A stretch of 63,181 bases of DNA, taken from the NCBI GenBank assembly GCA_045651205.1, contig JAZRSA010000011.1:1-63181 (forward strand), read 5' to 3'. A model generated the notes under the pieces. The model ran no database searches. It had not been told where the DNA came from and saw only the letters and a list, made by a program, of their open reading frames with translations. The stretch is from Clostridia bacterium. GTDB lineage: Bacteria; Bacillota; Clostridia; TANB77; CAG-465. A program made the position numbers and the translations under genes. Numbering within the stretch: the first letter of the stretch is position 1; each line of letters starts with the position of its first letter. Shown here piece by piece: positions 34,258 through 44,531 of this stretch.

Positions 34258-36183
34258 TTATATAGTCATTCTATCTCTCATTACTTGTTTTTGTTGTTCC
34301 TCTGTTAAGTCTGTTGTATAGAACAATGCAGTATCTAGACAACGCTCTACACTATTTTTAACATTTACTTCTAAATCTTCTAGTGTGCTTTCTCTCTTTC
34401 CTATCTGTACACCCTGTATGCGTGTTTTTAGCGTTGTGTTTTGTCCGTCTAATATATTTAATATTTGTTTTTTAGAACCTTCAAGCGGAACTAATGCTGT
34501 TCCACCTCTTGCAGCTTCCATCATTTCTCTTTCTTCATACGAAACTACCGTGTCTATTTTGGTTTTTGGTATCACCTTTTTTACCATATCTGGTAATTTG
34601 TCTTCACCCAAAACTTCTCTGTATTTTGCTACATAAATAGCCATTTCTTCCATAGTGTTTGGTGTGTTCAATCCACCCTTTTCTATGAACTGTCTTCTAA
34701 GTCTTATATTTTCTACTTGCGCCGCTCTTACTTTAGCTTTTCCAGTTAGTTTATCCCATAATGTATCTTTCTTTGCAAGAAGTGTTTGTTCCTCGCTTAA
34801 AAGGTCTGCCCTTGCCTTAGAAACAATATCTTCGCCAAGTCTAGTTGCAACACTTTCACTTAGCATTCTTCTATTTTTTTCTTTTGTAATAGATATTGTT
34901 TTTTCGCACTCATCCATTATTTTGTTTGTTATGGAAAGCTTCTCGTAAAGCGAATTTAACTTTTTGTTAAGTTCACCCGTTACCGCCATATCTTCTTTAG
35001 TCATACTATCTGGCATTTCTATTTGGCTTATTTCTCTTTTTATTTCTTCTATCTTTCTTTTTAGTTCTTCGAATTTAGCTACTGTTTCTGAGTCTGCCAC
35101 CTTTACTTTAGATGTATCTAGGCCAAGTTCTTCTGCTTTAGCATATAACTCTTGTTCTTCTGGTGTCATTGTTTCATAATATCCACCTGCATTAGCAACT
35201 CTTGCTAGAGTTCTATCTGCTCTTCTTAAAAGTTCTGCTTTGCGTTCTCTTTCTAGTTCTATTTTTCTTTTTCTTTCTTCATCTTCAATTTCTATTTTAT
35301 CTTTAGCAAGACCTCTTTCTATTTCTAATTCTACAGTTCTAAATTTGTCTTGTAGAAGTCTTGTCATAGATGTTTTTACTGTTTTAAAGCTTGTAGCTAC
35401 TTCATTTAATTCTTCCAAAAGCTCTACTTGTCTTTCTCTCATATATGAAAGTTCTTCGCGTTCGTCTTTGGTTCTAGCACCACTTAGTGAAGCTATTCTT
35501 TCACTCATAAGGTCTGCTTTAAACTTTAATTCTTTATATTTTTCCAGATTTTCTTCATAGTTAAATGACGATATGTTTTCTTCACATTCTCTTCTTTCTT
35601 CATCTGTAATATTTGCAAATTCTTGTTTCCTTACATTTGCGCTATACCTTGTAACCCCATCTATATCTTGATAGCTATATGATTCTATTCCTTCAATTTT
35701 ACTAAAAGGAGATACTAATATTTCTGATTCAGACACTTGTGTTTCATCTAAAAACTCATCTGTTGGAATATATGGCACACCACTTAAAGACATAGCAAAA
35801 AGAGCCCCGTTCCTATACTCGGTAAATCTCATAGCTATATCTCTATCTGTTGAAGTAGATAAAAATCTACCACTTACTTTTTCACGTTCTAGTTTAGCCA
35901 CTTCGCTTCTTGATGTTCCTCTATATACAGTAGTTCTATCTGTTCCACGTGCTAAACTGTATTTATACATTGCTGAATACAGTTTAGTTAAATATTCTGT
36001 ATTTTTTTCTATTCCTTCTTTTGAAAAGTCTATTACCCAGCCTTTAGATAATTGTGTATTTATTACTTCTGGATCTATATCTAAAAGCGCATTCATGCTG
36101 ATATGCGCATTAGATATATATCTTCTTACTGCTTCAATCTCTTCTTCTGTAATTTCTAGACTTCTGTAGTCTGATTTGTTCAT
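34258..36183 (-). CDS. ADP-ribosyltransferase (R-S-ExE clade) domain protein with a long coiled-coil C-terminal region
   Basis: VRRYISNAHISMNALL (Y-x6-IN-x-L-like helix), TVYRG (Arg), FLSTST (STS), VSESEILV (ExE). The remaining ~450 aa are Glu/Lys/Arg-rich with a heptad-like pattern. No signal peptide. Confidence 0.75.
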   Translation of the reverse strand: MNKSDYRSLEITEEEIEAVRRYISNAHISMNALLDIDPEVINTQLSKGWVIDFSKEGIEKNTEYLTKLYSAMYKYSLARGTDRTTVYRGTSRSEVAKLEREKVSGRFLSTSTDRDIAMRFTEYRNGALFAMSLSGVPYIPTDEFLDETQVSESEILVSPFSKIEGIESYSYQDIDGVTRYSANVRKQEFANITDEERRECEENISSFNYEENLEKYKELKFKADLMSERIASLSGARTKDEREELSYMRERQVELLEELNEVATSFKTVKTSMTRLLQDKFRTVELEIERGLAKDKIEIEDEERKRKIELERERKAELLRRADRTLARVANAGGYYETMTPEEQELYAKAEELGLDTSKVKVADSETVAKFEELKRKIEEIKREISQIEMPDSMTKEDMAVTGELNKKLNSLYEKLSITNKIMDECEKTISITKEKNRRMLSESVATRLGEDIVSKARADLLSEEQTLLAKKDTLWDKLTGKAKVRAAQVENIRLRRQFIEKGGLNTPNTMEEMAIYVAKYREVLGEDKLPDMVKKVIPKTKIDTVVSYEEREMMEAARGGTALVPLEGSKKQILNILDGQNTTLKTRIQGVQIGKRESTLEDLEVNVKNSVERCLDTALFYTTDLTEEQQKQVMRDRMTI

Positions 36184-36197
36184 TTATATCCCTCTTA

Positions 36198-41910: not shown

Positions 41911-44497
41911 ATACTACTTCACCTTCTTTTGTTCTTTCCATTTCCATATCTTTAAGCATAGCTTCATACCTTTCTTTTCTATCTCTTGCCGTCGTTTCCC
42001 TATATGCTGCTTCAAAATCTTCCATAGAAACCAACTCCGGTCCTGCTTTACATCTATCTATGCTTTCAATATGTTCTCTCATTGTTTTGTTGTATTCTTC
42101 TACAGGAGTACCCATTATATGCCCTGTAGATTGTTCTACAAAATGCTCTGCCATATATCCTAAATACTCTAAGGCAAGCTTCTTTTTACCTTCTGGCAAA
42201 GTATCATTTGTAGTTATTGTTTCTATTAAACTTGGCATTTCTGCAACCACTTTGTAATATGGTTCTCTATACATTATCTCCCTAATACTGTCTGGAGATA
42301 ATGTTTCTTTAAATTCTCTTCTTGCTTCTTCTGCCCTTTCGTTATTCAAATCTAGATATTGTTGTCTATCTATCATAACGACAGGTATACCATGTGCTTT
42401 TGCTGCTTTAATAGCATTCTCATTCATATTTCCATCAAAGCAAACTATACAAGATGGCATAAGTTTATCTGTTCCCGTTTTTGCTCTTAAGTCTTCTGCT
42501 TTAGAAATGTCTGTTTCTTTTCTTTTTTGAACAAGTTCATTCCAATATGTAGGGTCTGTCCAATACGCTAAATCTTCTGTACCTCTCATTCTACAGTTCA
42601 TACTCTTAGTCTCCATATGACCTGCGCCATGTTCCACCATCATATCTGTAGAATCCATTTTAATTATTCCATCGTCTGCAAGTTCAGTAAACCCATAAAA
42701 CACTGCGTCCGGGTCAATTTCTTTTAGCGCTTCACCTTCATACACTGCTAAATCTGCAGCTTGTCCTGCTTCAGCGTATGCTTTTGCAGTCGCTTCATCT
42801 TTTAACATTACAAGTTCAGCACCATCTCTTGTTTTCATACTTCTAAAAAGTCCCGCTATCTTTTTATCTGTTATTAGCGTAGTTGAAATTGTATTGCTTC
42901 CTTCAGTTTTTGACCACATAGTTGGATCTTCTATTATTCTATTTGCAATACTGTTCATATTGAAATCAAAATTAAAAATTCTATGTATGCATAAATTAAA
43001 GCTTTGACCATTAAGTTTTATAACTTCTACACCATCTACACTTTCTCTATCTAACGAATCATCTGTTAAATCTAACATCTCTTGGTTATATGTCTTAGAA
43101 TACATGCTAGATATTCTTTGCTTTGTTTCAGCTACATCCGAAATAACTGTTGACATAGCACCAAATTGCGCCCTTAACTCATCTATATTATCTATCCCAG
43201 CCATTTGTTCAAGGAGTGTTAGTCTTCTTCTAAATTCGTCAGTTATTGGCGCCTCAACATTATGCGCTTTAGCATATTCATAAAGTTCTTCCATATTGAA
43301 GTTGCAATACTCTTCATCGAATGCTTGCATTTCTTCAGGACTTGCGTTAAACAACATCTCCGAATATATTCTTCTAACCTCATCTGGAGTTTCCGCCTCA
43401 TCTAATCTTGCGTCGTAATATTCTCTTACTATTTCTTCATAATTGCTCAAATCTTCTATGCTTGTTATTCCAAACTTATTTCCTGTTGCAACTAATGTTT
43501 TAAACATATCTTCTGGCATATTTATTCCATCCAACCCATTTGTGCTATTTACAAGTTCACTTAAATTTGTGTATGAAGATATTGCTCCTTGAATGCTTGG
43601 AAGTGTTTCACCGTACACTCCTTTATATTTTTCTATATATGCTTCTAGCGATTCTAAATTACCTGCTTTACTTGCTTCTATTACCGTATCTACTGCTCCA
43701 GTACTATACTCCAACAAGCTATTTAATGTATTTATATCCATACTGGATATTCTTTCGTCACATAAAAGCTCATATCTTAAGTTAGGATTTTCTAATGTTA
43801 GTTCAGGTCTAATTGTTTTTATTCTTTCATACGATGCATAAAATCTTTGCATTGTTGCATTATTCTCTGGAAACTGTTTGTAATTTGCAAAATTTTGTTT
43901 AATTACAGCTTCCACCAGCTCTTCTGGGAAATATCCTTCAAGCTTGTCCTTGAAAGCAGTAAATTCTTTAGGATTCGCTGTAACATATGCTGCCATATAT
44001 TCTTTGCTATCTCTTATTTCTGGTATTTTTATTCTTTTGTAATTATTTATATCTTTTTCCACTAAATATGTTGCAAGCTCTACATCGTCTGCTATGTATT
44101 TAGGAGCCATTCCATATATTACCCCATGTCCAGCCTTACTAAGTCTTGACCCTTCTTCAGGAATTATCTCTCCGCGTATATATCCATTAAATTGTTCTTT
44201 TAAGAAATCGCTTTGTACTTTAGAGCCTTTTAATCTAAGTAGTAGATCTGGATTCTTACCTATACAATCTTTTATTACTTCTTCGTCTGTAAATATTCCG
44301 TCCATATCTGCATATTCTGCATATTTTTCATCAAGAATAATTACTTTCTTTTGTACTTCAAGAGGAAAACTTTCCATAAACATAGAATCTATGTCTAATA
44401 CATCTGCCACAAAATCCATATCTGTTAAATATTCTTCTGGTATTGGTGGTAACTCATAATTTTCTTCTGCGTATTTTAATATTTCAGACTTGTCCAT
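41903..44497 (-). CDS. large hypothetical cytoplasmic protein (864 aa)
   Basis: Start set at MDKSEILKY (RBS AAGGGGAGG). No TM helix or signal peptide. The N-terminal helical repeats are loosely reminiscent of DUF4116 (low confidence). Confidence 0.8.
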   Translation of the reverse strand: MDKSEILKYAEENYELPPIPEEYLTDMDFVADVLDIDSMFMESFPLEVQKKVIILDEKYAEYADMDGIFTDEEVIKDCIGKNPDLLLRLKGSKVQSDFLKEQFNGYIRGEIIPEEGSRLSKAGHGVIYGMAPKYIADDVELATYLVEKDINNYKRIKIPEIRDSKEYMAAYVTANPKEFTAFKDKLEGYFPEELVEAVIKQNFANYKQFPENNATMQRFYASYERIKTIRPELTLENPNLRYELLCDERISSMDINTLNSLLEYSTGAVDTVIEASKAGNLESLEAYIEKYKGVYGETLPSIQGAISSYTNLSELVNSTNGLDGINMPEDMFKTLVATGNKFGITSIEDLSNYEEIVREYYDARLDEAETPDEVRRIYSEMLFNASPEEMQAFDEEYCNFNMEELYEYAKAHNVEAPITDEFRRRLTLLEQMAGIDNIDELRAQFGAMSTVISDVAETKQRISSMYSKTYNQEMLDLTDDSLDRESVDGVEVIKLNGQSFNLCIHRIFNFDFNMNSIANRIIEDPTMWSKTEGSNTISTTLITDKKIAGLFRSMKTRDGAELVMLKDEATAKAYAEAGQAADLAVYEGEALKEIDPDAVFYGFTELADDGIIKMDSTDMMVEHGAGHMETKSMNCRMRGTEDLAYWTDPTYWNELVQKRKETDISKAEDLRAKTGTDKLMPSCIVCFDGNMNENAIKAAKAHGIPVVMIDRQQYLDLNNERAEEARREFKETLSPDSIREIMYREPYYKVVAEMPSLIETITTNDTLPEGKKKLALEYLGYMAEHFVEQSTGHIMGTPVEEYNKTMREHIESIDRCKAGPELVSMEDFEAAYRETTARDRKERYEAMLKDMEMERTKEGEVVYE

Positions 44498-44531
44498 ATT
44501 TCCTCCCCTTTGATACATTTATACAAAATAA

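Follow-up and report, generated by a model that had tools for sequence, protein, structure and literature searches.

An ADP-ribosyltransferase operon of a Clostridia bacterium, possibly put together within its lineage from three gene modules of separate inheritance

Mono-ADP-ribosyltransferases (ARTs) of the R-S-ExE type, with their common fold and their Arg, Ser-Thr-Ser and Glu-x-Glu motifs, include VIP2, Certhrax, iota/C2 and the T4 proteins Alt, ModA and ModB; NAD+-dependent transferases that may act as growth-arresting effectors are also the active parts of DarTG, CmdTAC and ParT/ParS. The 63,181-nucleotide stretch of DNA analyzed here (contig JAZRSA010000011.1, positions 1 to 63,181, of the Clostridia bacterium assembly GCA_045651205.1; GTDB lineage Bacteria; Bacillota; Clostridia; TANB77; CAG-465), hereafter the window, carries on its minus strand, between positions 34258 and 44518, five closely packed genes designated A to E, the last of which encodes such an ART. 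The N-terminal ~190 amino acids (aa) of protein E have a fold like that of VIP2, Certhrax, iota/C2 and the T4 enzymes, and the same three motifs. In contrast to the ARTs of the VIP2/Certhrax type, however, E has neither a signal peptide nor a binding component and carries its ART domain at the N-terminus, where it is fused to ~440 aa of long coiled-coil helices. Like the transferases of DarTG, CmdTAC and ParT/ParS, E is a potential growth-arresting effector, but the locus differs from these systems in having no match in PADLOC and no adjacent antitoxin or hydrolase, as well as in its ART architecture.

One more group to be compared are the polyvalent proteins of phages and conjugative elements, which are large, consist of multiple modules and typically include ART and GNAT domains (Iyer et al. 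2017; PMC5512222); in phage conflict proteins these two domains are repeatedly found together (PMC5512222, PMC7824862). A GNAT-like domain of protein C is likewise present in large phage proteins. In our case, however, the activities reside on separate proteins encoded by a chromosomal operon outside any phage or type IV secretion system (T4SS) context, and E belongs to the R-S-E type, while the ARTs of polyvalent proteins are of the H-Y-D clade (PMC5512222).

The sequence-only reading of this DNA had proposed an undescribed anti-phage or other conflict system built around the ART. The comparison of genomes makes us tentatively prefer another explanation, namely that the block was put together in this particular lineage from three modules inherited independently of one another ([A-B], [(B)-C-D] and [E]), which encode cytoplasmic modifying enzymes and do not constitute one conserved system; C-D would be its widespread core.

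Layout of the operon and distribution of its genes

The five genes form a genuine co-transcribed operon. Gene A spans 41903-44518 and encodes 871 aa if counted from the first ATG, although translation most likely begins at the second ATG, at 44497 (41903..44497, 864 aa), which is located behind a strong Shine-Dalgarno sequence (AAGGGGAGGA) and gives a protein as long as the ortholog in a sister species (L001). Next come B (41476..41910, 144 aa), which overlaps A by 8 nt, C (37499..41464, 1321 aa), D (36198..37496, 432 aa) and E (34258..36183, 641 aa), so that the A-B, B-C, C-D and D-E junctions amount to -8, +11, +2 and +14 nt. Upstream of gene A, an extended -10-like element (TGATATAAT, 44532..44540, minus strand), a candidate by position only, was read directly in the sequence, and a terminator-like hairpin with a T-run (34180..34204) is located 54 nt past the stop codon of E, being the sole minus-strand terminator-like site within the five-gene block. 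As the numbers of promoter-like and terminator-like sites in the whole AT-rich region (39 and 4, respectively) do not exceed those in shuffled sequence (48.3 and 3.9), both signals are plausible by position and statistically unproven. None of the proteins A-E has a transmembrane (TM) helix or a signal peptide (all 19-aa Kyte-Doolittle windows are at or below 1.32, and no N-terminus is signal-like), and charged coiled-coil-like stretches are present in C (aa 1255-1321), D (aa 322-417) and E (aa about 185-359 and beyond). Thus, the layout described in the sequence-only reading, including the lengths and junctions of the five genes, the signals at both ends of the block, the absence of signal peptides and TM helices and the Glu/Lys-rich stretches in three proteins of the five, was reproduced in our analysis.

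The expectation that the five-gene order would recur in defense islands of related genomes was not borne out. Outside the window, the full A-B-C-D-E order was found in only one sister species (L001/L011), which is also the only other place where A and B occur near C. In a second sister species (L012), the RluD gene is directly followed by C-D-E, without A and B, and the link of E to C-D is confined to the three sister species. A more distant relative (L008) has E beside RluD and none of the genes A-D at this locus. Two distant homologs of E whose context was examined are both located apart from A-D, one of them beside genes of a GNAT protein and a DinB-type polymerase and the other among housekeeping genes. 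The identities of the proteins to those of the sister species are 92% for A, 91.5% for B, 84%/74% for C, 87% for D and 70-72% for E, with 81-96% for most of the flanking genes.

It is the C-D pair, not E, that proved to be conserved. The pattern scan of species genomes revealed 186 relatives of C in species-representative genomes (a word-indexed single-sequence search had yielded 9 proteins only), nearly all of them in metagenome-assembled genomes (MAGs) of uncultured gut Clostridia, Bacilli or 'Tenericutes.' C and D are adjacent in 72 of the 88 loci, 10 of the 16 exceptions being contig ends; the gap between them does not exceed 30 nt in 67 of the 72 pairs, and C precedes D in 69 pairs and follows it in three. 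From this almost invariable adjacency and tight spacing we infer that C and D form a complex. Besides D, no gene family recurs around C in the loci compared, and there is no synteny even among related species: the 132 immediate neighbors of C-D in approximately 35 genomes belong to 151 Pfam families, mostly housekeeping, each occurring three times at most. No enrichment in defense genes was detected near C-D, as the PADLOC search of these 132 neighbors returned only generic matches of the helix-turn-helix (HTH), GNAT and IscS types, recurring not more than three times. Several contigs with C (L043, L048, L059, L075, and L088) were binned as MAGs of Muribaculaceae, Ignavibacteriales or Methanobrevibacter; their C sequences group with the copies of the Bacilli type, and these bins are probably the result of contamination and not true hosts.

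As to the A-B module, a 92%-identical ortholog of A was found in L001, and four metagenome contigs have A-like genes whose products are 44-54% identical to A. On three of these contigs (L103, L105, and L106) the A-like gene is followed by a B-like one; none of the contigs has C, D or E genes nearby, and the surroundings are of the housekeeping type. Seven further Clostridia genomes (L014, L021, L023, L024, L028, L032, and L046) also encode B-like proteins inside their C or C-D loci, and in L024 the B-like gene directly abuts C. As B-like proteins are found with A-like genes and with C-D pairs alike, B is the sole comparative link between the modules. Homology of A to C, or to the large proteins encoded beside B-like genes in L046 and L014, was considered and rejected, as none was seen in the comparisons.

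Predicted activities of the encoded proteins

Judging from the predicted fold and the motifs, E is a true R-S-ExE ADP-ribosyltransferase, in agreement with the sequence-only reading. The arguments are a confident model, its matches to Certhrax and VIP2 and the conserved catalytic residues. The AlphaFold2 model, built on an alignment of 99 homologs, has a pLDDT of 92.4 and matches Certhrax (4fk7, E 4.6e-4) and VIP2 (1qs1/1qs2, E ~1e-3) in Foldseek with a probability of 1.00 over ~210 columns. The N-terminal domain (aa 1 to ~190; 35614..36183) contains the motifs VYRG at 86-89 (the aromatic-Arg-Gly with the catalytic Arg of beta1), LSTS at 108-111 and ESE at 152-154 (the catalytic Glu pair of the ARTT loop), and residues Y22, N31, R88, G89, S109, E152, and E154 are conserved in at least 90% of the 99 homologs. 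The C-terminal region (aa ~191-641; 34258..35613) is predicted by AlphaFold2 to consist of very long helices (239-337 and 404-470) and a helical end domain. At the level of sequence the ART signals are weak (PF01129, E 0.0034, for the homolog P0060; Vis, 4xzj, E 0.09): no above-threshold match to the Pfam ART and ADPrib_exo_Tox models was obtained, the best being that of P0060 with 17.2 bits against a cut-off of 22.3, and sequence and profile searches of the PDB with E gave coiled-coil noise and the single weak match to Vis. E itself has no match in Pfam, PADLOC, PHROGs or NCBIfam.

An exhaustive HMMER search with aa 1-215 of E retrieved 162 representative clusters (at 50% identity), most of which are ~600-700 aa long and share the N-terminal domain and the ~650-aa architecture; E thus represents a new architectural family inside a known enzyme class. 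It would act as an arginine-type (ExE) mono-ADP-ribosyltransferase similar to VIP2, Certhrax and Alt and would modify an intracellular protein, the ExE motif presumably specifying arginine as the acceptor. The ortholog of E in L008 (positions 10001-11926; also in L009), which is 63% identical, contains a single in-frame TAA codon (GAA to TAA) at the boundary of the ART and coiled-coil regions. This codon splits the gene into open reading frames (ORFs) of 198 and 416 aa, representing either a recent pseudogene or a fission at the domain boundary.

In the giant helical-repeat protein C, the most conserved block (aa 830-1150; 38015..38977) holds an alpha/beta core at approximately aa 950-1110. 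The AlphaFold2 model of aa 640-1321 (pLDDT 90.2, pTM 0.78) found among its top Foldseek matches in the PDB almost exclusively members of the GNAT superfamily, among them the tandem GNAT 2wpw (E 3e-3), SpeG, Gcn5 and FemX, and in the model the order of elements in aa 953-1102 fits beta1-alpha1-alpha2-beta2-beta3-beta4-alpha3-beta5. The core motifs are CCQ at 980-982, QSWFW at 1016-1020 and CFDNIEIP at 1027-1034, and in an alignment of 40 bacterial and phage sequences (A2) residues G975, C981, Q982, Q1016, S1017, W1018, W1020, D1029, and E1032 are invariant. Cys981-Gln982 is located between the two helices preceding strand beta2, in the acceptor-binding segment of GNAT proteins, QSWxW on beta3, and D1029 and E1032 on beta4, a frequent site of the general bases of GNAT enzymes. 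Against this assignment stand the low Foldseek scores (E from 3e-3 to 8e-2, target-normalized TM-score of 0.3-0.5, probabilities mostly 0.8-0.99) and the absence of the canonical Q/RxxGxG/A coenzyme A (CoA)-binding motif, as beta4 is followed by EIPNKIF and neither alignment A1 nor alignment A2 shows a conserved G-x-G/A. Nor did Pfam, including its GNAT models, give any match for C or nine of its homologs, and sequence and profile searches of the PDB with C returned coiled-coil noise. We therefore call the C-terminal domain of C GNAT-like by its modeled structure only, since it fails GNAT membership at the levels of sequence and motif. In contrast to known GNAT proteins, it has the invariant Cys-Gln, QSWxW and DNxE signatures and is embedded in helical-repeat proteins of 1100-1900 aa.

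The helical part of C contains a module with the motif P-LF(L/I)..DAPEEL+..FY, of which full-length homologs have from zero to four copies. Two are present in the window's C according to a regex scan, at aa 435-452 (PDLFISYDAPEELQDKFY; 40109..40162) and at aa 571-588 (PEMFLAPDAPEELKLAFY; 39701..39754), and their conservation is seen in alignment A1. The longer homologs (P0005-P0009, 1430-1870 aa; columns 1-200 of A1) have an extra N-terminal region, absent from the window's C, whose motifs (DLSxIPF..., T.ANLDF..., GCNxRN) are reminiscent of pentapeptide repeats.

With viruses, C shares the C-type domain alone; it occurs on 11 viral contigs, some of them jumbo-phage contigs of 300-379 kb, as well as in the Microcystis phage MaMV-DC. 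In large phage proteins of 601-1433 aa (L091:7163-11464, L094:7490-10819, L097:8663-10468, and L107:4840-6933, the latter being ORF68 of the myovirus MaMV-DC), all annotated as hypothetical, it is located, with its CCQ, QSWxW and DNIE motifs, near the C-terminus. As Foldseek matched the C model weakly (probability 0.4-0.8) to phage proteins that bear a 'PcfJ-like' annotation, we considered C as a PcfJ-like protein (PF14284). This assignment was rejected, as neither C nor its homologs have a Pfam match and the hhalign probability against PcfJ of pCF10 is 0.3%. In pCF10 (L109:15874-17984), the PcfJ-domain gene directly adjoins one whose annotated product is a Cas9 inhibitor of the AcrIIA9 family, which places PcfJ among likely establishment or anti-defense genes; the literature search on PcfJ returned only Caenorhabditis elegans pCFJ plasmids or passing mentions.

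Protein D is a pseudoenzyme of the ProA/aldehyde dehydrogenase (ALDH) fold that probably still binds a ligand. Its similarity to this group is seen from the score with Pfam Aldedh, which at 28.2 bits exceeds the gathering cut-off of 23, and from alignments to the N- and C-terminal parts of ProA structures, namely that of Thermotoga maritima (1O20; aligned at 23-227 and 252-299) and 8zok. In contrast to ProA, however, approximately 53 residues between the two aligned parts, including the loop with the catalytic Cys, are missing, and with the NCBIfam ProA models (E 5.6e-17) D scores far under the cut-offs (61.6 bits vs. 289 and 54.4 vs. 317 for PRK00197 and TIGR00407, respectively); the pairing with C is one more difference. 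No conserved Cys was found in the D family (65 members), while many other positions are invariant in these homologs. The loss of catalysis is deduced from the deletion of the catalytic segment and the lack of a family-wide Cys. The coiled-coil tail of D (aa 322-417) is an addition of the Clostridia clade.

Proteins A and B are an orphan pair, with no match in Pfam, PADLOC, PHROGs or NCBIfam and, in the case of A, none in the PDB. From its sequence, the C-terminal half of A (about aa 500-730) looks enzymatic, being strongly conserved and containing the motifs CIHRIFNFDF, STTLITDKKIA, MDSTDMMVEHGxGH, NCRMR, and PSCIVCFDG. The sequence-only reading had recognized a fold signal in only two of the five proteins, the ART of E and the ProA-like domain of D without its Cys. 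Both stood, and the structure search added the GNAT-like domain of C, whereas A and B were left with no library match.

Possible role of the operon and competing explanations

The window's operon lies next to a run of genes resembling a defense island (16813-32968, minus strand), which encodes an SNF2 helicase (904 aa), two C5 DNA methylases followed by an HNH protein, a TipAS-GNAT fusion, DUF5986 and IrrE/M78-HTH proteins, an SLFN-group-3/DUF2075 helicase, a DUF5677 protein and an AAA_21 ATPase; the sequence-only reading, which had named SNF2, RM, DUF2075 and Ppl-like genes there, described this neighborhood correctly. In comparison with L008, this island, of approximately 18.5 kb, separates E from the DUF362 gene, and genes A-D separate RluD from E. 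The operon in this lineage thus occupies a variable hotspot, and its location there beside a defense island makes a conflict role conceivable. This part of the earlier proposal stood; the expected recurrence of defense neighbors failed, since C-D is associated with defense genes in this window only.

According to the explanation that we tentatively prefer, the three modules would have been brought under one promoter in this genus-level lineage, in the hotspot between RluD and the defense island. C would transfer an acyl-type group onto an amine of a protein or another macromolecule, D would serve the C-D complex as a regulatory or scaffold subunit that has no catalytic activity and probably binds a nucleotide, and the charged coiled-coil tails could let C, D, and E assemble. 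Several observations weigh against such a join of separate modules. Our comparisons of gene neighborhoods cover approximately 10 kb on either side of each gene, which limits the evidence for modularity to that span. The tight spacing under one promoter, the shared coiled-coil tails and the link provided by B mean that the five proteins could cooperate here. The housekeeping surroundings of C-D (e.g. RecA, PFK, PheS, RodA, iPGM, SerRS, and PurA) and the identity bands of C, which track taxonomy (~45-70% in Clostridia and ~31-37% in Bacilli), fit a cellular role equally well, and together with the absence of mobile-element and defense genes around C-D they favor it. On these grounds, C-D and, separately, E might belong to lineage-specific cellular physiology of small-genome gut Firmicutes, for instance to regulatory modification of a cellular protein, with incidental co-transcription and no part in conflicts; the conservation of D at many positions despite its lost catalysis agrees with this. 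We nevertheless regard a purely physiological role as somewhat unlikely, as C-D shows no synteny between related species, L008 lacks it at the corresponding RluD locus, the catalytic domain of C is common to jumbo-phage and cyanophage proteins, the distribution is confined to ecologically alike and phylogenetically distant lineages, and the E ortholog of L008 has a nonsense codon.

We lean slightly toward an accessory, conflict-type role over core physiology. For C-D it is favored by the domain shared with phages, the lack of synteny, the hotspot and the pairing of ART and GNAT in polyvalent proteins (PMC5512222, PMC7824862). The most elaborate version of this idea, which we consider unlikely, is that C-D is an unrecognized two-protein enzyme machine, in which a giant protein of acyltransferase fold, with Cys-Gln in its active site, works with a dead, ligand-sensing ProA-like partner. 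Small-genome gut Firmicutes would exchange this machine among themselves, its catalytic domain being also that of jumbo-phage and cyanophage proteins, and here it would have recruited an arginine-specific ART and A-B to form a new 10-kb multi-enzyme operon of defense or counter-defense, acting via dual protein modification. Still less probable is the single anti-phage or conflict system of the sequence-only reading, in which E would be the effector and A-D the sensor or regulator parts releasing it upon infection. The single promoter and terminator, the tight junctions, the intact R-S-ExE ART, the location beside the defense-like island in the hotspot and the fastest evolution of E within the block (70-72% identity vs. 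81-96% for most of the flanking genes) speak for it, as does the lack of a matching named system: PADLOC-DB 2.0 gave no matches for A-E and the adjacent RyR-domain protein at E <= 1, and PHROGs, NCBIfam, and Pfam gave only the ProA/Aldedh matches of D, all weak. Nor are the genes a syntenic core of all relatives, and a prophage structural module was rejected, as there are no phage genes in the annotated parts of the window (~1.4-52 kb), so that none of the outcomes named in that reading as fatal to it was found; nothing in the data, which were not searched for it directly, points to a sporulation or cytoskeletal cluster either, C-D having no conserved neighbors. However, the five-gene order in one sister species only, the occurrence of A-B, C-D, and E each without the others, the neighbors of C-D in ~35 genomes with no defense enrichment, the two distant E homologs apart from A-D (one of them in a housekeeping setting) and the absence from the operon of an immunity or antitoxin candidate such as a macro domain or an ARH hydrolase all speak against a system built around the ART.

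The occurrence of the C-type domain in large phage proteins, the weak structural matches to 'PcfJ-like' phage proteins, the AcrIIA9-family neighbor of PcfJ in pCF10 and the ART plus GNAT combination typical of polyvalent proteins (PMC5512222) would also suit an origin of the block from a phage or a conjugative element, as a remnant or as domesticated cargo similar to the injected polyvalent proteins that subvert the host. This origin is quite improbable: integrase, T4SS and virion genes are absent from the annotated parts of the window, and virion and T4SS genes from the annotated C-D loci; tblastn gave no phage or plasmid matches for A and for the ART domain of E and no plasmid matches for the C domain; the E family has no match in IMG/VR; the ARTs of polyvalent proteins belong to another clade than E (PMC5512222); and the alignment of the C domain with PcfJ of pCF10 is non-significant. 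Finally, since the closest solved structures to E are those of secreted toxins, E could in principle be an exported VIP2/Certhrax-like exotoxin with A-D as its delivery or chaperone apparatus, but the absence of signal peptides and TM segments from A-E, the lack of a binding or translocation component and of secretion-system genes in the annotated parts of the window, and the N-terminal position of the ART domain followed by a coiled coil make this extremely improbable.

Other features of the window and significance of the findings

Just past the operon hairpin, a separate promoter-like site (TTGACT-17-TAAAAT with TG; 34152-34124) precedes the gene of a RyR-domain protein (33434-34117, minus strand; Pfam E 1e-24). 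An 82%-identical copy of this gene is located upstream of E in L008, whereas neither L001 nor L012 yielded one; the plus-strand ORF of 234 aa overlapping it (33395-34099) looks spurious. Elsewhere in the window, four paralogous DUF3137 proteins (344-464 aa) are encoded on either side of the pyruvate formate-lyase and radical-SAM activase genes (1453-10080, minus strand), a single protein combines HTH (XRE) and Fic/DOC domains (12237-13256, minus strand), and the Rfam 'skipping-rope' small RNA motif is present at 52736-52817 on the plus strand, where its 41.3 bits exceed the gathering score of 36.7. The 3' end of the 23S rRNA gene, cut by the window edge, the 5S rRNA gene and the tRNA-Asn(GTT) gene occupy 62487-63181 on the minus strand.

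For the search for new defense systems, the locus is a caution: a tight operon with a toxin-type domain located beside a defense island can be a recent mosaic and not a system. In our case the parts are new and widespread, while an ART-centered five-gene defense system is not supported. Three families that have neither a curated model nor a described function come out of the analysis, namely the C-type GNAT-like domain (present in at least 186 species and in phages), its partner, the dead ProA-like protein D, and the ~650-aa ART-coiled-coil family of E (162 clusters). These families occur mainly in uncultured gut Firmicutes, organisms whose biology has for the most part been deduced from annotation. 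If C-D is indeed an enzyme complex, it would provide a new case of a metabolic fold, that of ProA, turned into a regulatory pseudoenzyme, and a GNAT-fold enzyme whose active site is non-canonical and which bacteria and large phages have in common.

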